A stretch of 64,000 bases of DNA from a bacterium (lineage in GTDB: Bacteria; Calditrichota; Calditrichia; RBG-13-44-9). A program made the position numbers and the translations under genes. This document shows, in pieces, positions 4,040 through 63,487 of the stretch. Within the stretch, counting starts at the first letter, position 1. The number at the start of each line of letters is the position of its first letter. The DNA is taken from positions 3,163,563 through 3,227,562 of the forward strand of contig CP070707.1 in NCBI GenBank assembly GCA_020350205.1. Direction: 5' to 3'. The notes beneath the pieces are model-generated. The model searched no databases. It was not told where the DNA came from and worked only from the letters and a program-made list of their open reading frames with translations.

Positions 4040-4331
4040 TCAATAATAATTATCAGCTAGTCTTAATTTTTGACCAGAGAGATAATTACTGGTAATTTTC
4101 TTCCTGGCAGAGAGTGAAAAATTGAATTGTTGGGAATATTTTTCGATTCTATCGATTACCTGTGTATACATTGAGATACGCAGTGAGACATATTTAATGT
4201 CCAGTCAGAGGAACAATCGGACTATTTTTGGGTTTTAATGAATAAACCGATATTGAGTTTGTAGTGGCTTTTTAGTGCAATTTTTATTAAAATCCAACAG
4301 GTTTAATAAAACGGGTGAGGTTGAAGGAGGA

Positions 4332-7300
4332 ATGGACAGAGTAAGATTACTTATCCTGATAATAATCAGTGTTTTTGCCTGCCAGCAAGGTTTTGCTCAG
4401 TTCGGGAAAAATAAAATCCAATATGCCAAATTCGAGTGGCGCTTCATTCAGAGTAAACACTTCGATGTCTACTATTATCCGGGCGCTGAAAAACTTGCAG
4501 AATTTACCGCCGAGGTGGCGGAAGATGCTTATTTGCAGTTGAAACGTGATTATTCTTATGAGATAAAAGAGCGGTTGGTTTTTATTATCTATAAGTCGCA
4601 TAACGACTGGCAGCAGACCAATGTCGTTCTCAGTTATCTGGAGGAGGGAATTGGTGGAGTCACTGAATTATATAAGAACCGTATTGTGGTTCCGTTTGAG
4701 GGATCTTATGAACAATTTCGTCATGTTATACATCACGAATTGGTTCATGGTGTGATGAATGATTTGTTGTACGGCGGATCAATTCAGTCTTTACTGGTGG
4801 GGGAAGTGGTGCCCGTTCCGTTATGGGTTTCGGAAGGTTTAGCGGAATTTGGTTCAACCGGATGGGGCACCCGCACCGATATGATTGTCCGAGATGCGGT
4901 CTTGTCGGATTATATTCCACCGGTTCAATATTTGGAATATATTTTGGTGTATCAGGGTGGCAATTCATTATTCCGATATATTGCGGAAACCTATGGGCGG
5001 GAGAAAATCGGAGAGATTTTGCTCAAAGCCCGGGGAAATGTGGGTTTCCAACAGGTTCTCATTTCGGCAATTGGTCTGGACTATGAGGGTTTAACCGAGA
5101 AATGGCACCGCTGGCTGAAAAAGAACTATGCTCCTGAAGTGAATAACCGTCTCATTCCTAAGGAATTCAGTGAGCAGATGACCTACCATAAAAAATTGAA
5201 GAATTTTCTCAATGTAAGTCCAGCTATTACTCCGCAAGGGGACAAAATTGCCTACATCTCGGATCGATCCGGATATCAGAATATCTATCTCATGTCTGCA
5301 CTGGATGGTCAGGAATTGAGAACCCTTGTTAAGGGTCAAACTTCTGAAAGTTTTGAGGAATTGCATTTTCTCAGACCGGGAATGAGTTTTTCGCCCGATG
5401 GCAGACGACTTGCTTTTACTGCGAAGAGTGGGCAGTGGGATGCGATTTATATTAAAGACATATATACTGGCCGGACGGAGAAACACGTTATAAAAATGAA
5501 TGGTGTATTCACGACCTCCTGGTCTCCCGATGGTAAACGGATGGCTTTTGTAGGAAATAATGATGAAAAGAGTGATATTTTCATCTATGATCTGGAATCA
5601 AAAGAGATCACTGCAGTAACAAACGATCTGTTTACGGATGATCAACCTTCCTGGTCCCCGGATGGTCGTTATCTGGCATTTGTTTCGGATAGAGGTTATT
5701 ATCTTTCCGATAAAAATCTTGCGGATGATTTTAGCATGAGTGGGTACGACTATGAATTTCGGGACATTTATGTTGTTGATCTTGAAACAAGTGAAATTAC
5801 CCGTCATACCAATACCCCCTGGGAGGAAGCCTATCCTATTTTCTCGCCGGATGGAAAAAAACTTGCTTTTACCTCTGACGAAAGCGGGATATTCAATGTC
5901 TATTTTAAAGAGATTGATAGTGGTGATTATTACCCGGTGACGAATATCATGTCCGGAGTGCTTCAAATCCAATGGGATAAAGATGCGAATAAGCTGGTGT
6001 ATTCAACCTTTTATGATGGTGGTTTTGATATATACCTGATCAATAATCCGCTTGAAATGGATCGTCAGGAATTGAAGCTAACAGAGTTTGCCCAAAGCAT
6101 GCGGAATGGAAAATTGCCAATTTATGCTAAAAATTGGTATCCGGCAGAAGATGATGAGAAAAAGGTTGAGAAAGATCCTCAGGAAGAGATGCAGGGCGAG
6201 CAACCGGCAGATTACAGTAATTATGTATTTGGGACCTATCGGCCCCGCCAGGAGAGAAAATCGCCCCGCGAGGTGGAAATTCCTGATTTTAAATTGAAAG
6301 ACGAATTTGGAAATTACAAATCCAGAAAATATAAAATTAAATTTTCACCTGATCTTGTTACAGGTGCTGCCGGTTATAATACATTTTTCGGTTTTCAAGG
6401 TTACACATCTTTTGCTTTCAGTGATTTACTGGGTGATCATCAAATTATGCTGAATGCTTCACTCTGGACCGATCTCCGCAACAGTAATTTTGCGTTGATG
6501 TATTATTATTTAAAAAGACGGGTTAATTATGGTGTAGGCGGATTCCATCTGGTTTATTTATTATCCAATGGATACACGATACTCCGATACCGGAATTATG
6601 GTTTAAACTTTATGGCTTCTTATCCATTGAGCCGCTTCGATCGCTTGGATTTTATGTTTATTTGGTATAATGTGAATCTGGAATATCTTGATTTTGGTAT
6701 TCCGGTGGAGAAAATCAGTGCCTGGCTTCCGGAAATTCAGTATGTTCATGATAATGTTTTGTGGGGATTCAGATGGGGTATCCCCTCACCGGTGAGTGGC
6801 AGCCGCTATAATATTTCTGCACGGTTAAGTCCCAAGTTCAGTGACGTCAACCTGGATTTCCGAACCTTTAAATTTGATTATCGCCGCTATCTGATGCTTA
6901 GTCCTCAGTACCAGTTAGCAGTTCGGGCAACTGCCGGTGCCAGTTTTGGCCGCGATGCCCAGAATTTTTTCCTGGGAGGTATGGATAACTGGATCAATCC
7001 CAAATATAGCTCAGGAGGAAGAAGAGTAAATCGTATCCAGGATGTCTTTTTCTCCGAATTCATCACTCCTTTACGTGGTGCTTTTTATTATGAGCGTACC
7101 GGTAATCGGTTTTTCCTCATCAATAGCGAGTTCCGGTTTCCGCTCGTACAATACCTGCAACTGGGTTTTCCCCCGGTCAGTTTATTCAATGTAAGCGGTG
7201 TTGCCTTCTATGATATTGGCGCAGCCTGGTATCAGCAGGATACCCGCTGGTGGAGTCTGGATGAATTCCGTGGAATATCAAATGGTAAGTTCCAGGATCT

Positions 7301-7433
7301 TATCAGCGGTTATGGTTTAGGTGCCCGTATCTATTTCCTGGGATTTCTGGTCCGTTTCGATGTGGCCTGGCCGTATGATTTTGACAGAACGTATGATCCC
7401 ATATATTACTGGTCTCTGGGTCTTAATTTTTAA
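4332..7433 (+). CDS. outer-membrane multidomain protein: HExxH zinc-metallopeptidase-like domain + TolB-like PD40 beta-propeller + Omp85/bacterial-surface-antigen beta-barrel
   Basis: The ORF is open from 4275. The likely start is the ATG at 4332, directly after AGGAGG, giving signal peptide MDRVRLLILIIISVFACQQGFAQ. An HELVH motif sits about 150 aa in. Four or more PD40-type repeats follow (FSPDGRRLAF, WSPDGKRMAF, WSPDGRYLAF, FSPDGKKLAF). The C-terminal ~350 aa carry Omp85-type motifs (FLGG, LRG, ERTGN, amphipathic beta strands) and the protein ends ...SLGLNF. Confidence 0.75.
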   Translation: MDRVRLLILIIISVFACQQGFAQFGKNKIQYAKFEWRFIQSKHFDVYYYPGAEKLAEFTAEVAEDAYLQLKRDYSYEIKERLVFIIYKSHNDWQQTNVVLSYLEEGIGGVTELYKNRIVVPFEGSYEQFRHVIHHELVHGVMNDLLYGGSIQSLLVGEVVPVPLWVSEGLAEFGSTGWGTRTDMIVRDAVLSDYIPPVQYLEYILVYQGGNSLFRYIAETYGREKIGEILLKARGNVGFQQVLISAIGLDYEGLTEKWHRWLKKNYAPEVNNRLIPKEFSEQMTYHKKLKNFLNVSPAITPQGDKIAYISDRSGYQNIYLMSALDGQELRTLVKGQTSESFEELHFLRPGMSFSPDGRRLAFTAKSGQWDAIYIKDIYTGRTEKHVIKMNGVFTTSWSPDGKRMAFVGNNDEKSDIFIYDLESKEITAVTNDLFTDDQPSWSPDGRYLAFVSDRGYYLSDKNLADDFSMSGYDYEFRDIYVVDLETSEITRHTNTPWEEAYPIFSPDGKKLAFTSDESGIFNVYFKEIDSGDYYPVTNIMSGVLQIQWDKDANKLVYSTFYDGGFDIYLINNPLEMDRQELKLTEFAQSMRNGKLPIYAKNWYPAEDDEKKVEKDPQEEMQGEQPADYSNYVFGTYRPRQERKSPREVEIPDFKLKDEFGNYKSRKYKIKFSPDLVTGAAGYNTFFGFQGYTSFAFSDLLGDHQIMLNASLWTDLRNSNFALMYYYLKRRVNYGVGGFHLVYLLSNGYTILRYRNYGLNFMASYPLSRFDRLDFMFIWYNVNLEYLDFGIPVEKISAWLPEIQYVHDNVLWGFRWGIPSPVSGSRYNISARLSPKFSDVNLDFRTFKFDYRRYLMLSPQYQLAVRATAGASFGRDAQNFFLGGMDNWINPKYSSGGRRVNRIQDVFFSEFITPLRGAFYYERTGNRFFLINSEFRFPLVQYLQLGFPPVSLFNVSGVAFYDIGAAWYQQDTRWWSLDEFRGISNGKFQDLISGYGLGARIYFLGFLVRFDVAWPYDFDRTYDPIYYWSLGLNF

Positions 7434-7462
7434 GGGGTTGACTTAAAATTTACCTTATTAAA

Positions 7463-7492
7463 ACCTGCAGCCCTGTTCTGCAGGTTTTTTTT
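7463..7492 (+). terminator. rho-independent terminator after the large outer-membrane protein gene
   Basis: ACCTGCAG-ccctgtt-CTGCAGGT gives a perfect 8-bp stem, followed by TTTTTTTT. Confidence 0.8.
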
Positions 7493-7802
7493 ATAATAGT
7501 ATTCACCCGGTACATTTTTAAAGGCCGTGTTTTGCGGCTATGGATTTTTTGAACGATACAGCTCCATTTATTATCAAATTAATTTCTGTCGCTAGGACGT
7601 TTACGCTGGAAAACTACGGTGCTATGGGTGGAACATCCGACAGGTAAATAGCGGAAGTTGGAGAGATTTTCTGAGGACATTTTTAGATACATTTCTGTGA
7701 TATTTTATCTGTGACACCCGATAAATTCAGAATTAGTTTTTGATCACAGCTAATCTGCGGCGTATATTTGAAATGAACTCACATACAAATTTGACCAATC
7801 CC

Positions 7803-9191
7803 ATGGTAAAAGTAAAAACTGTTTATATCTGTAATTCCTGTGCTTATGAAACGCCAAAATGGGCAGGTAAATGTCCGGAATGTGGTAGTTGGAACAGTTT
7901 TGAGGAAACTGAAATTAGGCCAAGCCAACAACAGAAGGGGGCGTCACGAGAACATAATTCACCGAGATTACTATCGGAAGGTACCGACACACCTGATATT
8001 CGAATCGTAAGTGGCATCAATGAATTTGACAGGGTTCTGGGGGGTGGTGTTTTTCCGGGATCGGTCTCTTTAATTGCCGGAGATCCCGGTATCGGTAAAT
8101 CGACTCTACTCTTACAGGTCTCCGGAGAGTTTGTTAAAAAGAATAAAAAGGTTTTGTATGTAAGTGCCGAGGAATCTTTCAGACAGATCAGGGGAAGAGC
8201 CAAACGTCTGGAATTGATTGATTTCCCGCTTCCTCTTTTGGTTGAAACAGAACTTGAAGAAATTCTCTTCCAAATTGAACAGCAGGACCCTGATGTGGTA
8301 ATTATTGACTCAATTCAGGCGGTTTTTTCCCAGAACGTATCCGGAGCACCTGGCAATGTAAGTCAGATACGGGAATGTTCCTCCAGGCTTTTCAGGACTG
8401 CCAAGGAAAAGGGGTGGTCACTTTTTCTGGTGGGTCATATTACCAAGGAGGGCAGTATAGCCGGACCTAAAATTTTGGAACATATGGTTGATGTGGTCAT
8501 CTATTTTGAGGGTGATTCCCTGTATCAATATCGAATTTTACGGTCGCTGAAAAATCGCTATGGTCCGACCCATGAGCTTGGTTTATTTCTGATGGATCAG
8601 GAAGGGCTCAAAGAAGTACAAAATCCTTCTCAGCTATTCATCAGCCATACTGAGGAAATCAGAACAGGTGCGAGTATCACTTGCAGTTTCGAAGGTTCCC
8701 GTCCAATTCTTGTTGAGGTTCAAGCACTGGTTTCGCGAACGAATTACGGTATACCCCAAAGAACTGTAAGTGGTTTCGATCAGAAAAAGCTAGCCCTGAT
8801 CCTGGCTATTCTGGAAAAACATTGTGGGCTTAATTTTTCATTTTATGATGTTTTTATTAAAATTGCCGGAGGCTTGAGGATCGATGATCCTGGTATTGAT
8901 TTGAGTATTGCTGCGGCGATTCATTCCAGTTTAGTAAACCAGCCACTGGAAGCAAAAGCGGTATTCATTGGAGAGATTGGTCTGAACGGGGATGTGCGGC
9001 CAGTGAGTCAGATGGACAGGCGGATTGAAGAAGCGGTTAAATTAGGTTTTAACCGTGTTTTTATGCCGGAGATAAATTTGCACAAAATTAAAAAAATTGG
9101 CGTTGATCAAATTCATTCAATTAAAACAATTTCAGCATTGATCAATCAGAAAAACAGTCATCAAAGGACTCGAGTCAGTGAAACTTTATAA
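7803..9191 (+). CDS. radA: DNA repair protein RadA (Sms)
   Basis: N-terminal C4 zinc finger (CNSCAYETPKWAGKCPECGSW), Walker A GDPGIGKST, KNRYG motif (LKNRYGPT) and a Lon-like C-terminal domain. The ORF is open from 7740, but the conserved N-terminus begins at ATG 7803. Confidence 0.9.
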   Translation: MVKVKTVYICNSCAYETPKWAGKCPECGSWNSFEETEIRPSQQQKGASREHNSPRLLSEGTDTPDIRIVSGINEFDRVLGGGVFPGSVSLIAGDPGIGKSTLLLQVSGEFVKKNKKVLYVSAEESFRQIRGRAKRLELIDFPLPLLVETELEEILFQIEQQDPDVVIIDSIQAVFSQNVSGAPGNVSQIRECSSRLFRTAKEKGWSLFLVGHITKEGSIAGPKILEHMVDVVIYFEGDSLYQYRILRSLKNRYGPTHELGLFLMDQEGLKEVQNPSQLFISHTEEIRTGASITCSFEGSRPILVEVQALVSRTNYGIPQRTVSGFDQKKLALILAILEKHCGLNFSFYDVFIKIAGGLRIDDPGIDLSIAAAIHSSLVNQPLEAKAVFIGEIGLNGDVRPVSQMDRRIEEAVKLGFNRVFMPEINLHKIKKIGVDQIHSIKTISALINQKNSHQRTRVSETL

Positions 9192-10107
9192 AAGTTTAAC
9201 ACAAATATTGTTTATCCTGTTGTGCAGTGCCCTCAGTTTCTGGGTTTTGGCCCAGGATACTGAACCGGCAGCTAAATGGCGCATTTCAACTGTTATTGAC
9301 GGAATGGATACGCCTACCGGGGCTTTCCTTAACATCACTGCGATTGATTTAGATTCTGAAGGAAATCTGTACATTTTGGATGGCGGCCGAAATCGGTTAC
9401 TCAAGTATTCAGGTAACGGCCAATTAATGAAAGAAATTGGTGGTTTTGGAAGCAGTCAGGACCGATTTAATGATCCACGCGACCTGGACGCCCATCTTAC
9501 CCTAAATATTTATGTTGCAGATTATAACAATGATCGTATTGTCCTACTGGATACACATCTCAACTATTTAAATGAATTCAAAAGTCTATCCGATGATCTT
9601 TTTTTCTTCGAAATGCCTCTCAGTGTGGCAGTTAACAATCAATATGATCTGTTTATTTTGGAGGACCTTAATAAAAGAATTGTGAAGTATGATCGTTTTA
9701 ATCAACCATCGGCGCAATTTGGTAAGGCGTCGGAGAACCTGGGGCAACTTTTGGGTCCAGCCCAGGTGGCCATGGGATCCAAAAATGAGCTGTTTATATC
9801 GGACCCGATCGCTAAATCCGTTATTGTATTTGATTATCTGGGGAATTTTTTAAACGAGATCTCACATCCGGATTTCATTGAGCCTCGAGGAATTGATGTC
9901 AGTTTGCAGGAACAACTTTTAATTGCAGATCAGAAAGGGAAAAAAGTTTACTTTTATAAAACCAACGGTAAATTATTAGACATCTTGGATCTTGCACCCT
10001 ATAACATAGTACCCACGGATATATCATTGTGGCAACCCAGGGGTAGCAGGCATTCGCAACTTTACCTCTCTTCAGTGGAAAAATGTTACCTGTTGGTAAG
10101 AGAATAG
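9178..10107 (+). CDS. secreted NHL-repeat beta-propeller protein
   Basis: GTG start overlapping the radA end by 14 bp. Signal peptide ILFILLCSALSFWVLAQD. Five to six repeats of the form D..GNLYILD...NRLLKY / IYVADYNNDRIVLLD / LFISDP..KSVIVFD, typical of NHL repeats. Confidence 0.6.
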   Translation: MKLYKSLTQILFILLCSALSFWVLAQDTEPAAKWRISTVIDGMDTPTGAFLNITAIDLDSEGNLYILDGGRNRLLKYSGNGQLMKEIGGFGSSQDRFNDPRDLDAHLTLNIYVADYNNDRIVLLDTHLNYLNEFKSLSDDLFFFEMPLSVAVNNQYDLFILEDLNKRIVKYDRFNQPSAQFGKASENLGQLLGPAQVAMGSKNELFISDPIAKSVIVFDYLGNFLNEISHPDFIEPRGIDVSLQEQLLIADQKGKKVYFYKTNGKLLDILDLAPYNIVPTDISLWQPRGSRHSQLYLSSVEKCYLLVRE

Positions 10108-26924: not shown

Positions 26925-28631
26925 ATGAATTTGCGCTCTCTTATGAAAAGGATCTATCAAAAATCAATTCAGGTTTCAAGGATTCTCCTGATAATTTCAG
27001 GATCTATAATCATTTTAAATATGAATCTTTTTGCCCAATGGCAGATGCGTTCACCCTATATCATTACGGAAAACACCGCTCCTCGGCACAAGTGTGGTTT
27101 TCCTTTTATGTTAGAAGCATATTTCTCTGCCAATCGCGACCTTTATGAACATCTGCAACTATTTAAAATGACTTCAACGCAATTTGATTCAGTCATTTTT
27201 TCACCTTCCGGAAAATTCAAGATTTATTATAAGGTTGAGGGAATTCATGCTATTCCTGATTACGATCGGGACCTGAATGGTACACCTGATTACCTTGAAT
27301 TTGTTGGCCAGTCATTCGATCGGGCCTGGGAGATTGAAATTGACTCACTGGGTTTTAATCCGCCGCGAGATTCAAGCGGATATTTTCGAGAAGTATATCC
27401 GGTTTATTGCAGACTTCTCAGGGATTATGGCCTGACGACCTTGATTTATGACATCCCCTCACTTCCCGGGCACAACTTTGTTACCTACACTGAAATAAAT
27501 ATCAATTATAACTTTGTGACTTATCCGGGTGTCACTGATCCCATTGTACGGGATAGTATGGCTATAGCCATCACCGCTGCCCATGAATTCAATCATGCCA
27601 TTCACAGTGGTTATCGAATCTGGGTGGAGAATAATAATGCTCTTGATTTGTGGTTCATTGAAAGTTCTGCTACTTATATGGAGGAGGTGGTTTGTCCTGA
27701 CGTCAACGATTACGTGCAATATCTGGATTATTATTTTCAGAGAACCAATCAGCCGTTTGATCAGTCGAGTGGCGGATTGGAGGACTATGGCAAAGTTGTT
27801 TTGGAAATTATGCTGGGAGAACGCTATTTCCCTCAGATTGTGAGATATACCTGGGAAGAAATCCTGGAATATCGTGCCTTACCCGCACTGGAAAATGTGC
27901 TTCAATCCCTGCAAACAAGTTTTGCGGCAGAATTCAGCCTGTTATCTGCCTGGCTATATTTTACAAATGAAAGATCTGTGTCGGGTCGTTATTTCCCGGA
28001 TGGGGACCTCTTTCCCAGTCCGCGATTCAAAGCAGCGGCAGCTGTACAGGAGAGAAAAACGGTCTTAATAAACGATTCGCTGCCAGGAAACTCATTTCAG
28101 TGGTATTTTTCCTCGCTAGAAGCAGAGACAGCTATTCAGTTATATTTAAAAGCTCTGAAAGGATCGGTTGCCAGTGATCTAAATGTCACGCTGATCCCTC
28201 CACCAGGGATTGAATTTATTCAATTTCACGCTTCCATATCAACACCGATTGAAATCGCTTCCGGTCAAACAGGAATACCGTTTGGAGTTGTAAATATGGA
28301 TATGAATGGTGGCGAATTTTATCCGTTTGAAATGATTTCTAATCCGATGAAACTGGCTTCCGCTCCCGATATCCGGGTTTATCCTCAACCTTTTTTATTG
28401 TCAAATTCCCAGGAGTATCTTCATTTTGATCAGTTACCTGAGAATGCAAATCTGTCAATTTTTAACAGTCAGGGTGACCATGTTATTACCTTGACAGGGA
28501 ATCCGGGTGACCAACGTGTGATTTGGGACTTGAAAAGTTCGCGCGGAAAACGTATAGGAAGCGGTGTCTACATGTACTATGTGAATTCCCCGGCGTTACA
28601 GTATCAGGGTAAATTTGTGGTGATTTATTGA
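26925..28631 (+). CDS. secreted zinc metallopeptidase (HExxH) with type IX secretion C-terminal sorting domain
   Basis: N-terminal signal/TM. HEFNH (HExxH) at about residue 220. The C-terminal ~80 aa (RVYPQPF...GSGVYMYYV...GKFVVIY) match the Por/T9SS C-terminal-domain consensus. Confidence 0.7.
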   Translation: MNLRSLMKRIYQKSIQVSRILLIISGSIIILNMNLFAQWQMRSPYIITENTAPRHKCGFPFMLEAYFSANRDLYEHLQLFKMTSTQFDSVIFSPSGKFKIYYKVEGIHAIPDYDRDLNGTPDYLEFVGQSFDRAWEIEIDSLGFNPPRDSSGYFREVYPVYCRLLRDYGLTTLIYDIPSLPGHNFVTYTEININYNFVTYPGVTDPIVRDSMAIAITAAHEFNHAIHSGYRIWVENNNALDLWFIESSATYMEEVVCPDVNDYVQYLDYYFQRTNQPFDQSSGGLEDYGKVVLEIMLGERYFPQIVRYTWEEILEYRALPALENVLQSLQTSFAAEFSLLSAWLYFTNERSVSGRYFPDGDLFPSPRFKAAAAVQERKTVLINDSLPGNSFQWYFSSLEAETAIQLYLKALKGSVASDLNVTLIPPPGIEFIQFHASISTPIEIASGQTGIPFGVVNMDMNGGEFYPFEMISNPMKLASAPDIRVYPQPFLLSNSQEYLHFDQLPENANLSIFNSQGDHVITLTGNPGDQRVIWDLKSSRGKRIGSGVYMYYVNSPALQYQGKFVVIY

Positions 28632-39582: not shown

Positions 39583-40758
39583 ATGATGTATCCCCGTATG
39601 ATGAATGAAAATATTTTTGCAGTGGGTGCGTTTGATTGGGATCGAACCTTATTTGATGCCCTGATTCCGCTTCCTTACGGAACTACCTACAACGCTTATT
39701 TGATAAAGGGATCAAAAAAAACCGTTCTTATAGACACAGTTGACCCTTCGAAGCTTGCCGTTTTAAAAAGGAATCTTAATAATTTGAATATTGATAGACT
39801 TGATTATATCATTTCGAATCATGCAGAGCAGGATCACTCCGGTTCAATTCCCGAAATACTGAATCTTTATCCTATGGCCAGACTGTTAACCGGTAAAAAG
39901 GGACAGGATATGCTGTTACCACTGCTGGATATTTCGCCGGAGAGAATTCAGGTTGTGGAAGACCGGGAGATCTTATCGTTAGGTGATAAAACGCTTCAGT
40001 TTATTTTTGCACCCTGGGTTCACTGGCCGGAAACCATGTTTACTTTTGCGGTCGAAGACAAAATTCTATTCAGCTGTGATCTGTTTGGTGCCCATCTGGC
40101 CAGCAGTGAATTATTTGCCTCAAAAAATGAAAACACTTTACAGGAGGCTAAGCGCTACTATGCAGAAATCATGATGCCTTACGGAGGGCGGATTGTCAAA
40201 CATCTGGAAACACTGCAAAATTATGACATAAAAACTATTGCACCCAGTCATGGACCGGTCTATGATCACCCGGAACAGATCATGAGCGCGTATCACGAAT
40301 GGGTAACCGGAGATCTTAAAAATGAAGTCGTAATTATTTATGTCACCATGCATGGCAGTACGGAACAGTTGGTCTTCAGATTGACAGATGAGTTAGTGAA
40401 GAGAAATATTTCAGTTACCCCATTTAACACAGTGACTGCGAGCCTGGGAGATCTGGCGCTTTCGCTGGTGGATGCAAAGACGGTAATCCTTGGGTCACCA
40501 GCCTATCTCATGGGTGCCCACCCCAACCTTATTTACGCGGCCTACTTGATTAATACTTTAAAACCCCGGACTCAAAATGTTGGAATTATAGGATCCTTCG
40601 GATGGGGAAATAAAATGGTAAATCAGTTGACTGATATGCTGAAAGATCTCACAGTCGAATATTTACCCCCCTTGCTAGTCAAGGGGAATCCCCGGCAACA
40701 GGATTATCTCGATCTCGTTGCTTTGGCAGAAAAAATTCAGCAGGTGCATCAATCGTGA
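39583..40758 (+). CDS. flavodiiron protein (FprA/ROO type: metallo-beta-lactamase-like diiron domain + flavodoxin domain)
   Basis: Diiron ligand motif HAEQDH, further H/D ligands downstream, and a C-terminal flavodoxin-like domain (VIIYVTMHGSTEQL); 391 aa. Confidence 0.8.
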   Translation: MMYPRMMNENIFAVGAFDWDRTLFDALIPLPYGTTYNAYLIKGSKKTVLIDTVDPSKLAVLKRNLNNLNIDRLDYIISNHAEQDHSGSIPEILNLYPMARLLTGKKGQDMLLPLLDISPERIQVVEDREILSLGDKTLQFIFAPWVHWPETMFTFAVEDKILFSCDLFGAHLASSELFASKNENTLQEAKRYYAEIMMPYGGRIVKHLETLQNYDIKTIAPSHGPVYDHPEQIMSAYHEWVTGDLKNEVVIIYVTMHGSTEQLVFRLTDELVKRNISVTPFNTVTASLGDLALSLVDAKTVILGSPAYLMGAHPNLIYAAYLINTLKPRTQNVGIIGSFGWGNKMVNQLTDMLKDLTVEYLPPLLVKGNPRQQDYLDLVALAEKIQQVHQS

Positions 40759-40790
40759 TTGATAAAACCTTATTTGGAAAGGAGATAAAT

Positions 40791-42137
40791 ATGGCATCAA
40801 CAAAAATTGTCCTCTGTATAGTATTTTTCTTGGTGGCATATTCCCACTCTCAGGATCTTCCAGCAGGTGAAGAGGCTTTGGGTACTAAAAAGTATGAACA
40901 GTATGAAAGTCCGACTGTTTGTAAGAGCTGCCATGATAATTTCTATGAGCAATGGAAACAGGCTATGATGTCTCAGGCTTATACTCATCACTGGGATGAG
41001 ATTGAATACTTTAAATTGGCCGTTCCCCATGCAGAGAAGGATGAAAAGGTTGCCGGAGTTAAAGCGGGATGTAACGGTTGTCATGCTCCCATGGCTTTCA
41101 TGGCCGGTATAGTTCCCCCACCTAAACCAGAAGAAAATACGCGTGCGAATGAATCAGTTGCTTGTGATATCTGCCATACGATAATAGGATTTAAAGGAGA
41201 TATTCCTCATAATTTTAATTACATCTCGAATCCAGGAAGAACGAAATACGGTCCGAAACCAGGACTCTCCTCTCCACATCATGATACAGAGTATAACGAA
41301 TTTATTACTCAGTCAGAATTCTGTGGAACCTGTCATAATGAAATGAGTCCTTATGGGGTGTGGGTCAAAGCGACGCAGCTTGAATGGAAAGAGGGACCAT
41401 ATGCCAAAGAGGGAGTCCCCTGCCATCAATGTCATATGCCCAAGGCCAAAGGAAAGAATGCCAAAATGGCTAAGGAAGATATCGTTGCACAACATTTGTT
41501 CCATGGCGCCCATGACCCTGGGAAATTGGCCAGTGCTATTGAATTGAGAATGAATCCTCTGGAAAGAGAAGTCCCCTATGATGGAGTAGTATCTCTCAAT
41601 GTTCAACTTTTCAGTGCTAAACCGGGACACAAGTTCCCGACGGGCTCGGTTGAGGATCGAATTGTCTGGTTACATGTAACCGCAACTGATGCCGAAGGAA
41701 AAAGCTACCACCTGCCGGTGGACAAAAAAAGTTTTGCAGGTGAGGAATATACCATAGCGTCGGATGTATTGGCCTACCAGGATATGGGGATCGCATTGAA
41801 TGATCCCAATTTTCCCGGTGTGCAGCGGGATGGGGTGCCTATTGGGGACCGTATCTTCCGGATGCCTTATTTCGACCCGCAGGGCCGGATGACAATTCAA
41901 CAATGGAATACTAAATCTTTTGGAGTGGATTATCGGATCGGTCCCCGTGAGACGAAAATCGAAACTTTTACCTGGCAGTTACCTGATGATATAGCCCTTG
42001 GAAAAGTACATTTCACCGCAGAATTGAATTATAGCAAACTTGTTAAGCCAGTGGCTGACTTTTTAAAGGTTCCTGCAGAAGAAAGTGAAACGATATTAAT
42101 AAACAAGACAAATACCTGGGTTGAAGTATACGACTAA
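40791..42137 (+). CDS. periplasmic pentaheme c-type cytochrome with ~225-aa non-heme C-terminal domain
   Basis: AAGGAG RBS before ATG 40791. Signal peptide MASTKIVLCIVFFLVAYSHSQ. Five CxxCH motifs (CKSCH, CNGCH, CDICH, CGTCH, CHQCH) lie in the first ~235 residues; the remainder has no heme motif. There is no CxxCK, so it is not a canonical NrfA. Confidence 0.8.
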   Translation: MASTKIVLCIVFFLVAYSHSQDLPAGEEALGTKKYEQYESPTVCKSCHDNFYEQWKQAMMSQAYTHHWDEIEYFKLAVPHAEKDEKVAGVKAGCNGCHAPMAFMAGIVPPPKPEENTRANESVACDICHTIIGFKGDIPHNFNYISNPGRTKYGPKPGLSSPHHDTEYNEFITQSEFCGTCHNEMSPYGVWVKATQLEWKEGPYAKEGVPCHQCHMPKAKGKNAKMAKEDIVAQHLFHGAHDPGKLASAIELRMNPLEREVPYDGVVSLNVQLFSAKPGHKFPTGSVEDRIVWLHVTATDAEGKSYHLPVDKKSFAGEEYTIASDVLAYQDMGIALNDPNFPGVQRDGVPIGDRIFRMPYFDPQGRMTIQQWNTKSFGVDYRIGPRETKIETFTWQLPDDIALGKVHFTAELNYSKLVKPVADFLKVPAEESETILINKTNTWVEVYD

Positions 42138-47212: not shown

Positions 47213-50200
47213 ATGCGCATTTATTTTATTCTTCTGCTTATTCTCACCTATTTTGCCCAGGCCCAGGAAGTTCTTCCGCCCAGTGATGGCGGTTTCACAA
47301 AATCTATGGGGCAACCTCAGATATACAAACCGTACATCGGTTTTTCGCTGGGACACAGTTATCCGGCGGTGGATGATAAATTAATTGCCCAGTTCAGGTT
47401 AGGCGTGTACCGGGATTTAATGAATCCCATGTACAGTGTACTGGGTATTTCCGCGGAAGGGTATATAGGGAGTCTTCGCACTAATGAAGATTTTGGATTC
47501 CGGGCGATGATTGAAATGCCTGCATTACGACTGGCAGGCGGACTTGATTACAATTATGAAGTTGAGCGTCTTGATTTTATCCTTCGGATAACAGCTGCGG
47601 TGAGGCGGGGAGGTATTTTTGGAAGGGGGACTGACCTGCGCCTTGAATGGTTACCGGCGCGAGGAAATACCTATAATCTGGGAATCGGAATACCTATTTT
47701 CCAACCTAATCGCGGAAAAACCCGCCCTAAAAGGGACTATGTCAGACTCACAGCCCCTAAACCACCACAAATTCCGAAGGTGCCTGGTATTCCGGCCTTG
47801 GAGGAAGCTCTCAATAATATCCGTGAAAGTGCCCGCTGGATTAATCGGCTTACCACACCCTATTATGATTATGCAGGGGCCGATCCCTTTGCCGCGATTG
47901 CTGACTCCATGAAAGCACTAAAAAAACATTTGAATTCCCGTAATATCAATTTCCCGAATGGCAGGAACAGTGAAGCAGAGGTTCGCTTTTTCCATCAGGA
48001 ACTGGAGCGCGCATTTTCAATGGCAATTTTGGGCGAGTCGCTGGTGATGGGAGAGTCGGTTAATGAGGGTAGAGAGGTTGCGGCACAGGCAAGAAATATT
48101 ATTCTGGAGAGAATATTATATCCCTATAACCGTTTACTTGGTCAGAAAAAAAATAGTGATTCCATATTGGAGTTTGCCAAAACAGCCCGCGGTAAGATGG
48201 CTCGCTGGATGACACAATCTGATGTAATTCCACCTGAAAGAATTGATGCAGTCCGTTATGTATTCCAGGAAATTATAGCAATTATCGAAGAAAATCGTGC
48301 CTATTCAGCCAAAATCTGGAAGGATTCCAGACTGGTATGGCTTCCCCTGCAATATGCGCTTCTCCCAGAGCAGCATGACAGTCAGCAAGAGCTGGATAAA
48401 ATTATTGAGGGTGCCACCGGTCAGCGATTTACTGAGGGGAATAAAATCTGGTATATCATTAATGAAGAGTTTCAATATGAGGTGGCTCGACAGATCCATG
48501 CTGCCCGTGACTATCATATATTATGGATTCATGATATTGATGCGTTTGATGCGGGTGGAGACCCCGACACACTTACTTTTCTGCAGATCAAGGATTCCTA
48601 TTTTCAGGCTATGATAGACCGAATCAGAGAATATGACGATACCGGCAAACTTCCCGTTTTTATGATTTTTCTGGATCAGTTTTTTTATCAGGCCAATAAA
48701 ACTCGAACCTGGATGAGGTTGTTAGAAAAACCCCTGACCTATAGTCTCAAGTTATCCGACAAATCCATGGAACAAGCGCTGACGGAAAAACTGACAGAAC
48801 TGCGCCGAGCAATCAATAGGTCGAAACTGTTGCAGGCGGAGATTCAGGAATACGGGGAAGAATGGCTGCATAACCTGATAAAGGTCCACGTGAATATTAC
48901 CAATCCGGCGGATATCTCATTCTGGAGCAGGGGTATCCTTCCCATACTTGGAACCCCCGATCTGATTTCCCGGGATCATCGCAAAATATCATTTTATGAC
49001 GTTTCGGAGGAGGATCCTTACCAGGGTGTCATGATGATTGGGGGTATGGGTATCGGAGAACATTATGCTGGCCCAACCTGGGATGACCGCGGTATACTCG
49101 TCCAGGGTCCTGCCGCACTTGATTTAAAATATGCGGCCAGGCAACTTCTGCTGGATCAAGGATTTGAAGAACAGGAAATTCCCTATCCGTTGCAAATAAG
49201 ATCTAAAGCGAGTGATTATGCAAGGGCGGTGCAGGATACAATTCGAGTCTGGAGTAAAAAAGGATTCACCCTGGCAAAAGTAAAGCAATTACATAATCAA
49301 ACCGGTTATCATCCCAAAATGGTCAGCGTTGCCAATGCAGTGATGTATTCATTAATGCCCCGGCGAACCTTTCAGATTATTCCGGATAGTTTATGGGATA
49401 GTGATTTCTGGTTGGCCATTCTTCTCGGTAATTCTTTACGGGGAGGCTGGATAAGCATTCAGGCACCGGCTCTGGAAAATGCTCCCAGTGCCGGTTTTCC
49501 TCAAATGTCCCGAACCCAGGAGTTGTTGGCCCGGCATGTAGTGATCCAGGAGATATTGTCAGAAGAGATTGAAGCAGCAGGGGGAATGTTCAGAGCAACA
49601 TTATACAACCCGGATGAGGATGTGGCCGATTTTGCCGGACAACTGAAAGAGTTTAAACATCGTTTCGAGAGTGACAAAAATTTACAGGAACTTTTTCCAT
49701 TTCATCCTTCCATATACCGTATGTTGGACAGTATGATCCAGGTATTAAGTGAACAGCAAATCGCTTATCTGTCCTCTGACGCCGTGGTGAGAAAACCAAA
49801 ACTCCACGCAAAAATTAATTTGTTCGCTTCTCTGGATGTGGTCCGTGATTTATTGATCATGCCTGAGTTTGCCTCGGTTTTCAAGTCTTATATACTGCAG
49901 CGAGTTGCTCAGGCCACAGAATATGGAGAAGTCGGAAATGTCAGGGAAAAAGCAGAGAAATTTTTACAGGTAGCCAGAGACTGGGTTATAAAATATCGGG
50001 ATAATACACCCCAGGAGGACCTGGAAAAGTTGGTATTTTATTTTAAAGTGGGAACCATGAATCAGAATTATCGCAGTAAAGTGTTCGATGGAGAAGCGGT
50101 GGTATTAATATCGGGGGTCTATAGTATTTATGGTTTAATGGATATGATTTTCCGAATCGGTTTAACCACACCGATAGAAGACCTGGAAACTTTAGAGAAA

Positions 50201-50263
50201 CATCTTCCCCAGTATGGGGGTACGAAAAGAGCTATTGGTCGCTGGATTCGAACCACACTCTAG
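47213..50263 (+). CDS. large secreted protein of unknown function (1016 aa)
   Basis: Signal peptide MRIYFILLLILTYFAQAQ, then a beta-rich first ~170 aa and a ~840-aa mixed alpha/beta remainder. I recognised no confident family. A weak PLD-like pair (HAKINLFASLD ... GTMNQNYRS) has non-canonical spacing. Confidence 0.6.
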   Translation: MRIYFILLLILTYFAQAQEVLPPSDGGFTKSMGQPQIYKPYIGFSLGHSYPAVDDKLIAQFRLGVYRDLMNPMYSVLGISAEGYIGSLRTNEDFGFRAMIEMPALRLAGGLDYNYEVERLDFILRITAAVRRGGIFGRGTDLRLEWLPARGNTYNLGIGIPIFQPNRGKTRPKRDYVRLTAPKPPQIPKVPGIPALEEALNNIRESARWINRLTTPYYDYAGADPFAAIADSMKALKKHLNSRNINFPNGRNSEAEVRFFHQELERAFSMAILGESLVMGESVNEGREVAAQARNIILERILYPYNRLLGQKKNSDSILEFAKTARGKMARWMTQSDVIPPERIDAVRYVFQEIIAIIEENRAYSAKIWKDSRLVWLPLQYALLPEQHDSQQELDKIIEGATGQRFTEGNKIWYIINEEFQYEVARQIHAARDYHILWIHDIDAFDAGGDPDTLTFLQIKDSYFQAMIDRIREYDDTGKLPVFMIFLDQFFYQANKTRTWMRLLEKPLTYSLKLSDKSMEQALTEKLTELRRAINRSKLLQAEIQEYGEEWLHNLIKVHVNITNPADISFWSRGILPILGTPDLISRDHRKISFYDVSEEDPYQGVMMIGGMGIGEHYAGPTWDDRGILVQGPAALDLKYAARQLLLDQGFEEQEIPYPLQIRSKASDYARAVQDTIRVWSKKGFTLAKVKQLHNQTGYHPKMVSVANAVMYSLMPRRTFQIIPDSLWDSDFWLAILLGNSLRGGWISIQAPALENAPSAGFPQMSRTQELLARHVVIQEILSEEIEAAGGMFRATLYNPDEDVADFAGQLKEFKHRFESDKNLQELFPFHPSIYRMLDSMIQVLSEQQIAYLSSDAVVRKPKLHAKINLFASLDVVRDLLIMPEFASVFKSYILQRVAQATEYGEVGNVREKAEKFLQVARDWVIKYRDNTPQEDLEKLVFYFKVGTMNQNYRSKVFDGEAVVLISGVYSIYGLMDMIFRIGLTTPIEDLETLEKHLPQYGGTKRAIGRWIRTTL

Positions 50264-61474: not shown

Positions 61475-63487
61475 ATGAAATACCGCAGAACAATTTGGTT
61501 TCATGGTGTGCTGGTTTTGGCTTTTGCCGCGGTCATTGTAACTGCAGGTCAATTTGGAATTCTTTTTGCCCAAGAAAATGAGGTGGCTGAATTCAGGACA
61601 TATTGTGAGGAAGGACTTGTTGAAGCACGTCAGCTTTTTCAAAAACTGGAACAATATGAGGGACCAAAAACTGTAAAAACCGTGCTTGAGCCGTTGAACG
61701 AAATCTGGATCACGATGGATCATCCTGGCAATCTCTCCGGATTATATCAATCAGTTCACCCTGATCCCGAAATGCGTGCAGTGGCTGAAGAATACGATCA
61801 GAAATTCTCAAAGCTGGTAACCGAAATTAAAATGTCCCGTCCGCTTTATGATGCTGTATCGCAGGTGGATATATCCACTGCAGATCCCAAGACTCGTCGT
61901 TTTGTTGAAAAAACCCTGTTGAATTTCAGACGAGCCGGCGTGGACAAAGATCCTCAGACGCGGGAAAAGATAAAAACATTGCAGGAAGAATTAGTGATCA
62001 TCGGTCAGGATTTTGAAAAGAATATAAGGGAGGATGTGCGCTCCATTCAATTGAACTCGGTCGCTGATTTAAAGGGTCTGCCGGAGGATTTTATTCAATC
62101 CCATCAGCCCGATGCTGACGGGAAAATTAACATCACAACCGATTATCCGGATTATTTGCCTTTTATCAGCTATGCCGAATCGGATGAATATCGCTTCGAA
62201 TTATATAAAAAATATCGATCCCGTGGTCATCCCCAGAATGAGGAAGTTCTGAAAAATATGCTGCAGAAAAGATACGAACTGGCGCAGCTGCTGGGCTATG
62301 ATACTTATGCGGACTATGTCACAGAAGATAAGATGATCAAAAATCCGCAAGCCGCGCAGGATTTCATCAATAAAGTAGCCGATGCGGCTGATTCACGCGC
62401 AAAAGAAGAATACACCGCTTTGCTCAATCGGTTGCAGCAGGATATGCCGGAGGCGGAAAAAGTGACGCCCTGGCAGAAAACCTATCTGGCAGAACTGGTG
62501 AAAGCCGAATCTTTCGATATCGACTCCCGGGAGGTGCGCAAGTATTTTCCTTATGATCGGGTGAAGGAAGGATTATTCGACCTGACTTCCCAGATGTACC
62601 AGGTTACCTATAAAAAAGTCGATACCACCGTCTGGCATCCGAGTGTTGAAGTCTATGAAATTTGGGACGAAACTGGCCTGGTGGGTAAATTCTATCTGGA
62701 CATGCATCCCCGTAAAGATAAGTATAAACACGCCATGATGACCGAAGTGGTCTGTGGTATTCAAGGTCAGACTGCACCGGAAGCCGCGCTGGTATGTAAT
62801 TTCCCGGGTGGGGATGACAGCGATGGCTTGATGCAGCATGATCAGGTGGGGACATTTTTTCATGAGTTCGGACATCTCTTACACCACATTTTTGGTGGAC
62901 ATCAACCCTGGATGAATATAACCGGCATCACTACAGAGTGGGATTTTGTGGAAACACCTTCGACGTTGTTTGAGGAGTGGATCTGGAATGCCGACATTTT
63001 GAAGACTTTTGCGGTGAGTCCTGCGGGGCAGACCATTCCGGATGAGCTAATCCGGAAAATGAACCGGGCGCGGCTGTTTAATGAAGGTCTGGGCATCAAG
63101 CAACAGATGTTTTATGCCGCGATATCCTTAAACTTTTATAATCGGGATGCGGTCTCCTTCGATCCGCTTCAGAAAGTGATCGAGTTACAAAGCAACTACA
63201 CTCCCTTTCAATATGTTGACGATACCTATATGCACCTCTCTTTCGGCCATTTGTATGATTATTCCGCTATTTATTACACCTACATGTGGTCCGAAGTCAT
63301 TGCCAAGGACCTCTTCAGCGTTTTTCAGGCAGGTGGTCTGAAGAACCCGGGGGTGGCGGTTAAATATCGAAAAACAATTCTGGATCCCGGAGGCTCAAAA
63401 GAGGCAGCGAGAATGGTGAAGGAATTTCTGGGACGGGACTACTCCTTTGAAGCATTCAAGAATTGGCTGAACGGAGACAATATATAA
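61475..63487 (+). CDS. M3-family zinc metallopeptidase (oligopeptidase A / dipeptidyl carboxypeptidase-like)
   Basis: FHEFGHLLHH HExxH motif with the downstream E ligand region (FVETPSTLFEEW); 670 aa; signal/TM at the N-terminus. Confidence 0.85.
   Translation: MKYRRTIWFHGVLVLAFAAVIVTAGQFGILFAQENEVAEFRTYCEEGLVEARQLFQKLEQYEGPKTVKTVLEPLNEIWITMDHPGNLSGLYQSVHPDPEMRAVAEEYDQKFSKLVTEIKMSRPLYDAVSQVDISTADPKTRRFVEKTLLNFRRAGVDKDPQTREKIKTLQEELVIIGQDFEKNIREDVRSIQLNSVADLKGLPEDFIQSHQPDADGKINITTDYPDYLPFISYAESDEYRFELYKKYRSRGHPQNEEVLKNMLQKRYELAQLLGYDTYADYVTEDKMIKNPQAAQDFINKVADAADSRAKEEYTALLNRLQQDMPEAEKVTPWQKTYLAELVKAESFDIDSREVRKYFPYDRVKEGLFDLTSQMYQVTYKKVDTTVWHPSVEVYEIWDETGLVGKFYLDMHPRKDKYKHAMMTEVVCGIQGQTAPEAALVCNFPGGDDSDGLMQHDQVGTFFHEFGHLLHHIFGGHQPWMNITGITTEWDFVETPSTLFEEWIWNADILKTFAVSPAGQTIPDELIRKMNRARLFNEGLGIKQQMFYAAISLNFYNRDAVSFDPLQKVIELQSNYTPFQYVDDTYMHLSFGHLYDYSAIYYTYMWSEVIAKDLFSVFQAGGLKNPGVAVKYRKTILDPGGSKEAARMVKEFLGRDYSFEAFKNWLNGDNI

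Follow-up and report, generated by a model that had tools for sequence, protein, structure and literature searches.

Gene and domain layout

The sequence studied here is a stretch of 64,000 nucleotides from a Calditrichota genome (contig CP070707.1), hereafter the window, and the subject of this report is a single open reading frame (ORF) within it, 4332-7433 on the forward strand, whose translation is a protein of 1033 residues with Phe as its last residue. From the letters alone, the original prediction had described this protein as one polypeptide that joins a metallopeptidase, a PD40 propeller and an Omp85 barrel, with a HELVH motif in a metallopeptidase context, at least four propeller blades and a C-terminal barrel ending in Phe. 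This description, including the approximate domain boundaries (Table 1), was borne out by Pfam, by profile comparisons and by a full-length AlphaFold model (pLDDT 85.7, pTM 0.83), with the following results. First, residues 63-263, which include HELVH, match the Pfam family Peptidase_MA_2 (PF13485) at 45.2 bits, the gathering cut-off being 32.4. Second, Pfam finds five PD40 repeats (E = 1.6e-34) in a region that the model folds into six four-stranded blades, four of them canonical, with (F/W)SPDG, and two degenerate. Third, in the modelled C-terminus, from residue 671 to residue 1030, DSSP finds 16 long strands.

For this barrel, a Pfam scan of the window protein itself, a check proposed for the three domains whose outcome could have told against the barrel, gave no match, while the peptidase and PD40 were both recovered; even when cut out as 391 aa or as 379 aa, the C-terminus remained without a match at E <= 10. 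The C-terminus was nevertheless accepted as an Omp85 barrel, because matches of homologues to PF01103, matches of profiles to BamA and the superposition of the model all lead to this fold. Namely, the C-termini of 14 out of 19 diverged homologues match PF01103 (best E = 1.4e-17); family profiles match BamA chains of the PDB, with 8.5e-9 in one search and 2.2e-6 to 3.5e-6 in another; and Foldseek places the barrel on the BamA barrels 6qgw and 6fsu (E ~4e-11), with a TM of 0.58-0.63 when normalised to these barrel-only targets. The best sequence match of the barrel in the PDB is 9ccg, a 'POTRA domain-containing protein' (2.2e-10), on which a literature search brought up nothing relevant.

The propeller finds its best match, both by structure (Foldseek, 9e-14) and by profile (8e-30), in the six-bladed PD40 propeller of TolB, and DPPIV_N and S9_N profiles match it as well. 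Identity with TolB of the Tol-Pal system was rejected: the NCBIfam equivalog TIGR02800 reaches 176.1 bits, below its cut-off of 343.15, in an alignment confined to the propeller, and the N-terminal alpha/beta domain of TolB is missing here. Between propeller and barrel lies a linker that the model builds with short helices only, with pLDDT values of mostly 43-75 over residues 601-650. The POTRA domains that the original prediction had reported as absent are indeed missing, since the Pfam scan gave no PF07244 match in the protein and the modelled linker (573-670) holds no beta-alpha-alpha-beta-beta unit.

The start was assigned to the ATG at 4332 because it opens a typical Sec signal peptide, MDRVRLLILIIISVFACQQGFAQ (MDRVR / LLILIIISVFA / CQQGFAQ), and because alignments of homologues begin at residue 1 of the resulting protein; the GAAGGAGG motif at 4323-4330 is too close to decide, with 1 nt between its end and the ATG, a tighter spacing than in canonical Shine-Dalgarno arrangements. 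Two other options were discarded. The GTG at 4275, which gives the longest frame, would put 19 residues in front of the signal peptide, and it is at the ATG that the alignments of homologues start. A lipoprotein signal (VFAC) would use a Cys that is unconserved among homologues, with an atypical -2 position. The gene looks like a stand-alone unit, in keeping with the terminator and the monocistronic transcription proposed earlier: a hairpin with a T-run follows it, a gap of 292 nt precedes it, and it has no conserved operon partner. Its GC content, 0.39-0.42, is in line with that of the adjoining sequence.

Table 1. Position of the gene, its domains and its conserved motifs in the window, with the basis of each assignment; fractions are the numbers of sequences, out of 81, that keep the residue.
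Feature	Residues	Positions	Strand	Basis
Whole gene	1-1033	4332..7433	+	1033 codons and stop; full-length homologues up to 88% identity
Sec signal peptide	1-23	4332..4400	+	Read from sequence; 24% identity; conserved block begins at the next residue
Conserved mature N-terminal tail, FGKNKIQYAKFEW	24-36	4401..4439	+	Residue conservation: F24 72/81, G25 78/81, N27 76/81, Y31 70/81
Gluzincin (clan MA) metallopeptidase domain, predicted	~37-285	4440..5186	+	Pfam, fold matches, conservation
GGVTE, candidate substrate-binding edge-strand motif	108-112	4653..4667	+	G109 79/81, T111 79/81, E112 77/81
HELVH, probable zinc-binding/catalytic motif	135-139	4734..4748	+	H135 79/81, E136 80/81, H139 79/81
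WVSEGLAE	165-172	4824..4847	+	W165 79/81, E168 79/81, G169 80/81, E172 80/81
Candidate transition-state-stabilising tyrosine	207	4950..4952	+	Y207 79/81
Six-bladed PD40 (TolB-type) beta-propeller	~290-572	5199..6047	+	Pfam, model, Foldseek, profile
Low-complexity linker	573-670	6048..6341	+	Poorly conserved, 15-33% identity
16-stranded Omp85-type beta-barrel	671-1033	6342..7430	+	DSSP strands of model, Foldseek, profiles, PF01103 in homologues
LRG, L6-loop motif	914-916	7071..7079	+	R915 81/81, G916 80/81, P913 70/81
FYDIG, Omp85 strand-13 (F/G)xDxG motif	959-963	7206..7220	+	F959 81/81, D961 81/81, G963 74/81
GLNF, end of C-terminal strand	1030-1033	7419..7430	+	G1030 75/81, terminal F1033 67/81
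Intrinsic-terminator-like hairpin and T-run		7460..7496	+	Hairpin 7460-7488; 11-bp stem with 5 GC pairs, then T8

Conservation of the peptidase and barrel across the family

To judge by a search with the full-length protein, which gave 7041 matches, its closest relatives are proteins from Calditrichota metagenome-assembled genomes (MAGs), with up to 88% identity. With the barrel alone as query, about 1650 clusters (formed at 50% identity) were retrieved at E <= 1e-3, of which 986 reached E <= 1e-10; the top 150 of these clusters include 80 long proteins, in all of which the barrel is the C-terminal part of some 1000 residues. All residue counts given here come from 81 sequences, namely the query and 80 full-length cluster representatives with 29-45% identity, which had been retrieved with the barrel alone. 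When one genome per species is scanned, at least 591 genomes carry the family, and its hosts include Calditrichota, KSB1, Ignavibacteriota, Chlorobi, Bacteroidota and Marinimicrobia. In databases these homologues go by the names 'biopolymer transporter Tol', 'Tol biopolymer transport system component', 'PD40 domain-containing', 'peptidase MA family metallohydrolase' and 'basic secretory protein-like'. The Tol names and 'basic secretory protein-like' are over-annotations, the TolB equivalog being far under its cut-off, and a name like "Tol biopolymer transporter" gives a misleading picture of the family.

Even though the set was selected by the barrel, the peptidase is the domain whose column entropy is lowest, and the most conserved segments of the protein are found in it and in the short tail that precedes it. 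HExxH is kept in 78 of the 80 full-length representatives, and both of its histidines, on whose conservation the original prediction had made its peptidase depend, persist in the diverged homologues. As to the fold, Foldseek relates the domain to M9, M30, M1 and thermolysin folds, and also to the tricorn-interacting factor F3, with the M9 and M30 endopeptidases as the closest. Because these fold matches agree, the domain is called a gluzincin, with HExxH, a downstream Glu and a predicted thermolysin-like fold, which settles the fold type asked about earlier. The third zinc ligand, also sought at that time, is probably Glu168, which lies 29 residues past His139 in the conserved WVSEGLAE segment. 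Thus, HExxH is conserved and probably forms a catalytic gluzincin motif with its third-ligand Glu, and the peptidase is likely to be active, as suggested by the fold matches together with the retention of H135, E136, H139, E168, E172 and Y207, each in 79-80 of the 81 sequences.

Related folds do not make the domain a member of a known peptidase family. It has no significant sequence match to any peptidase of solved structure, and the accessory domains of M9 collagenases, M30 lugdulysin and M1 aminopeptidases are missing here; a profile of the N-terminal domain gave no significant match among PDB sequences, the best (E = 0.21) being to unrelated proteins. A sub-threshold profile alignment (E = 0.88) to 3cia, a cold-active M1 aminopeptidase, pairs HELvH...WLaEG of the family with HELAH...WLNEG, so that the WVSEGLAE region aligns weakly with WLNEG, and in the same alignment 'laYkgGq' of the family pairs with 'VPYVKGQ'. 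For Tyr207 and for WxxEG, these pairings may serve as leads only. In our own reading, GGVTE resembles the GxMEN motif of M1. Membership in M1 was rejected on three grounds: the motif is GGVTE and not GxMEN, 28 residues separate His139 from Glu168, and flanking M1 domains are missing. In M1 aminopeptidases, 18 residues lie between HExxH and the Glu.

The mature N-terminus begins straight after the signal peptide with FG(K/Q)NK(V/I)QY, which is nearly invariant across the family despite the low confidence of the model in this region (pLDDT <50 for residues 19-30). Such conservation of a free N-terminal end suggests a docking or an autoinhibitory role.

Omp85 proteins are recognised by two hallmark motifs, (V/I)RG(F/Y) in loop L6 and (F/G)xDxG in strand 13, and the barrel has a counterpart of each. 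LRGA at 914-917 corresponds to the first, and in the model strands 11 and 12 are joined by a long loop (873-925), placed as L6 is in BamA, on which LRG sits. As to the second, HMMER aligns FvDvG of the family with FaDaG/FWDVG of solved Omp85 proteins. The C-terminal segment aligns with 'FSLGQTF', the C-terminus of BamA 9pxj. Since R915/G916, F959/D961/G963 and G1030 are near-invariant and align with motifs of solved Omp85 proteins, the barrel is likely to be more than an inert anchor.

Relation to known Omp85 proteins and possible role

The Omp85/TpsB superfamily was split by Heinz & Lithgow (2014, Front Microbiol 5:370) into ten subfamilies, one of which, termed 'WD40-like' or 'WD40-Omp85', has TolB-like PD40 repeats instead of POTRA domains (PMC4104836). 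The protein described here, with its PD40 propeller N-terminal to the barrel and without POTRA, is a member of this subfamily; the lack of POTRA is an exception already known among Omp85 proteins, by which the subfamilies without it are defined. For WD40-like members, Table S3 of that study records Phyre2 matches to BamA/TamA, to TolB and, as 'best aminopeptidase hit', to 1z5h, 4kxd, 4fgm and 3qnf, with a confidence of ~99; the main text discusses the analogy to a BamA-BamB fusion only (PMC4104836). Because all three matches stand in that table, the three-domain layout had already been seen in 2014, and our protein shows no structural difference from it: the propeller, the PF01103-type barrel without POTRA and the aminopeptidase-type matches are the same, and it is the sequence that is new, with a best database match of 88% identity. 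One of the listed members, H1XQ58, is a protein that we take to be from Caldithrix abyssi; D0MEQ5 is another, and homologues of our protein occur in the phyla of the listed members (Calditrichota, Bacteroidota and Chlorobi). As an ordinary representative of a catalogued family, passed on by vertical inheritance, the gene does not bring a new architecture; of the distinctiveness first claimed for it, what stands is that it is unlike a textbook Omp85 protein, and what does not is its novelty, the family being both known and widespread. Our analysis goes beyond the main text of 2014 in three respects: the catalytic residues are conserved, the fold of the peptidase is M9/M30/M1-like, and the N-terminal tail is conserved too.

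The interest thus resides in the family overall, in which an Omp85 barrel is joined to a conserved protease. To our knowledge, every characterised Omp85 protein assembles or translocates proteins or, like PlpD, carries a periplasmic lipase. Across hundreds of species, the WD40-like proteins are conserved most strongly in a zinc peptidase that is apparently active, and a protease wired to a BamA-like barrel is a concrete, testable lead.

We favour, with a probability of about 0.6, the reading that the protein is an outer-membrane-anchored metallopeptidase facing the periplasm, possibly engaged in quality control of envelope proteins. After Sec export and cleavage of the signal peptide, the 16-stranded BamA-type barrel would insert in the outer membrane and, via the flexible linker of ~100 residues, tether peptidase and propeller on the periplasmic side. 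The peptidase would be an active zinc gluzincin, with His135, Glu136, His139, Glu168, Tyr207 and the GG(V/F)TE edge strand as its putative elements, and the propeller, by analogy with other propeller-containing peptidases, would select unfolded polypeptides or oligopeptides and present them to it. The barrel would in this way hold the peptidase at the outer membrane, on the inner side, where its most likely job would be envelope proteostasis, that is, the degradation of mis-assembled outer-membrane or periplasmic proteins.

The proposed orientation follows from the barrel. In the established Omp85 topology, L6 lies between strands 11 and 12 and strand 1 starts at the periplasmic face. Because the L6 counterpart is also found here between strands 11 and 12, strand 1 should start on the periplasmic side, and the peptidase and propeller that precede it would be periplasmic. 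The original prediction had suggested a surface-anchored protease or a substrate-capturing module akin to two-partner secretion, which would place these domains on the opposite face. In such a self-exporting module, of type Vd or two-partner-secretion-like character, the barrel would translocate peptidase and propeller to the cell surface, where they would digest or capture external proteins. We consider this very unlikely. An external protease would make ecological sense, given that Caldithrix abyssi, a Calditrichota relative, ferments peptides (PMC5317091), the disordered linker of 100 residues could in principle span the barrel lumen, and export was raised for other enzyme-Omp85 fusions by Heinz & Lithgow (PMC4104836). 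However, the protein has no POTRA domain, the window holds no TpsA-like neighbour, the window barrel gives no ShlB/TpsB-type Pfam match (a weak one is seen in 3 of 19 homologues), and export would require folded domains of ~550 residues, a six-bladed propeller among them, to pass through in an unfolded state with no source of energy. Moreover, PlpD, the sole precedent for such export, no longer stands, its enzyme domain having been shown to stay in the periplasm (Hanson et al., 2024; PMC11116518). Identity with TpsB or type Vd proteins was rejected on the same absences of ShlB match, POTRA and TpsA. PlpD and its patatin-like Omp85 relatives, formerly 'type Vd secretion', remain comparable in carrying a hydrolytic enzyme N-terminal to an Omp85 barrel and in the periplasmic topology, which is shown for PlpD and probable here; they differ in having one POTRA and a lipase in place of peptidase and propeller, and only PlpD is known to dimerise and to swap lids.

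With BamA and TamA the barrel shares its 16 strands, the RG of L6 between strands 11 and 12, FxDxG in strand 13 and a Gly four residues from an aromatic C-terminus, at ~14-16% identity in structural alignments. What differs is that POTRA is missing and that enzyme and propeller stand N-terminally; also, BamA and TamA are assembly factors, a role that is at most putative for the protein here. The near-invariance of the L6 RG, of FxDxG and of the last-strand Gly would suit an outer-membrane-protein assembly factor, a BamA-BamB-like fusion in which the barrel inserts substrates, the propeller scaffolds partners and the peptidase is minor or regulatory. This idea comes from the discussion of Heinz & Lithgow themselves (PMC4104836), and it also agrees with a TamB gene lying two genes upstream in 7 Ignavibacteriota/Bacteroidota loci. 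We regard it as unlikely, since the most conserved domain is the peptidase, with its catalytic residues kept, and neither the barrel nor the propeller; in addition, the propeller is of the TolB/PD40 and not of the BamB type, no POTRA domain is present to receive substrates, and the linkage to TamB is limited to few lineages, with an RNase R gene in between.

The closest functional parallel for the favoured periplasmic quality-control peptidase is by analogy BepA, described as a periplasmic zinc HExxH protease at BAM that acts on stalled outer-membrane proteins (PMC8423444, PMC13478230). BepA exists on its own as a soluble protein, has the M48 fold and carries a TPR domain, whereas here the protease is fused to its own barrel and its fold is M9/M30/M1-like, so that it might be seen as a covalent counterpart of BepA at BAM.

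A peptidase on the periplasmic side need not serve quality control. It could instead be a nutritional oligopeptidase that, gated by the propeller, trims imported peptides for uptake, with the barrel as an anchor or perhaps an entry pore. Oligopeptidases classically combine a propeller with a peptidase, and the matches of DPPIV_N and S9_N to the propeller, the fold likeness to M1 aminopeptidases and to tricorn-interacting factor F3, the resemblance of GG(V/F)TE to GxMEN and the M3 oligopeptidase gene in the same window are all compatible with such a function. We nonetheless think it improbable: the nearest folds are those of the M9 and M30 endopeptidases, the family is also present in phototrophic Chlorobi and in many non-proteolytic lineages, no linkage to peptide transporters was found, and strictly conserved Omp85 gate motifs would be needless for a mere anchor.

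The same gate motifs make it tempting to speculate on a bolder form of the quality-control peptidase, namely a self-contained outer-membrane proteostasis machine. In it the barrel would be a working BamA-type gate that captures the beta-signal of stalled or surplus outer-membrane proteins, propeller and gluzincin would degrade them, and the N-terminal FG(K/Q)NK(V/I)QY would serve either as a plug for regulation or as a tail to which partners dock. We hold this to be rather doubtful; if true, no earlier Omp85 protein would be known whose task is to destroy, and not to assemble or translocate.

Several points weigh against the reading that we favour. First, no conserved neighbour points to a pathway. 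Second, the quality-control role is an argument by analogy only. Third, a long disordered linker that threads a barrel would in principle allow surface exposure. Fourth, our literature search found no later papers that characterise the WD40-like subfamily, and Hanson et al. (2024) place it among the uncharacterised Omp85 subfamilies, which they call "intriguing targets" (PMC11116518). Fifth, the HExxH histidines are lost in the homologues P0092 (HYELTH) and P0174 (RELTR), and P0162 is without HExxH; catalysis is therefore not obligatory in every lineage. These three proteins retain the rest of the architecture and may be pseudo-peptidase variants.

Genomic neighbourhood and family copies

Upstream of the gene, the window encodes a response-regulator diguanylate cyclase (RR-GGDEF), a GT4 glycosyltransferase and a GDPD, and downstream of it RadA, an NHL propeller protein and RNase Y. 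After clustering of the flanking ORFs, no partner was found to be universal across the 80 loci of homologues; synteny is lineage-limited and involves RadA, a small secreted protein, TamB with RNase R, and MlaE/F-like genes. The Rfam scan of the window gave no match at gathering score, and the tRNA scan no tRNA gene.

The order TamB (PF04357), RNase R-like gene and homologue, all on one strand, occurs in MAGs of Ignavibacteriota and Bacteroidota (L046, L055, L059, L060, L067, L074 and L080), and the TamB proteins of these seven loci are ~25-27% identical among most of them. In 16 of the 80 loci, from Bacteroidota/Ignavibacteriota, a permease and an ATPase form a pair ~3 kb downstream on the same strand (e.g. 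L076, 12296-13863 (+)), which, judged by eye, looks like an ABC transporter of the MlaE/MlaF type. Immediately upstream of the homologue and divergent from it, 26 of the 80 loci encode a small secreted protein of ~120-155 aa with no Pfam match (e.g. L009, 5162-5629 (-)); it occurs in many Calditrichia genomes and is absent from the window, where the GDPD gene takes its place.

Two copies of the family were seen in single MAGs, namely L019 and L043 in JABWBP01 MAG_33, and L013 and L033 in WYBG01 PRO9, with 54-59% identity to the query, and Table S1 of Heinz & Lithgow has several H1X* accessions in its WD40-like column (PMC4104836). On account of both, paralogy within a genome is apparently common. 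Within the window, neither a paralogue nor a TamB gene was found.

In close relatives within the Calditrichia, RadA is likewise found on the downstream side of the homologue, as it is at two loci of Marinimicrobia (L047, L075). In the window, the RadA-like gene (7740-9191 (+)), which starts with TTG in the mechanical ORF call, and the NHL-repeat gene after it (9178-10107 (+)) share 14 nt. Further along, Pfam gave no match at E <= 1e-5 for two large ORFs, 47213-50263 (+), with 1016 aa and an apparent signal peptide, and 26925-28631 (+), with 568 aa. Also encoded in the window are an M3 oligopeptidase (61475-63487 (+)) and a multihaem cytochrome (40755-42137 (+)) whose domains are MtrC/c554-like.

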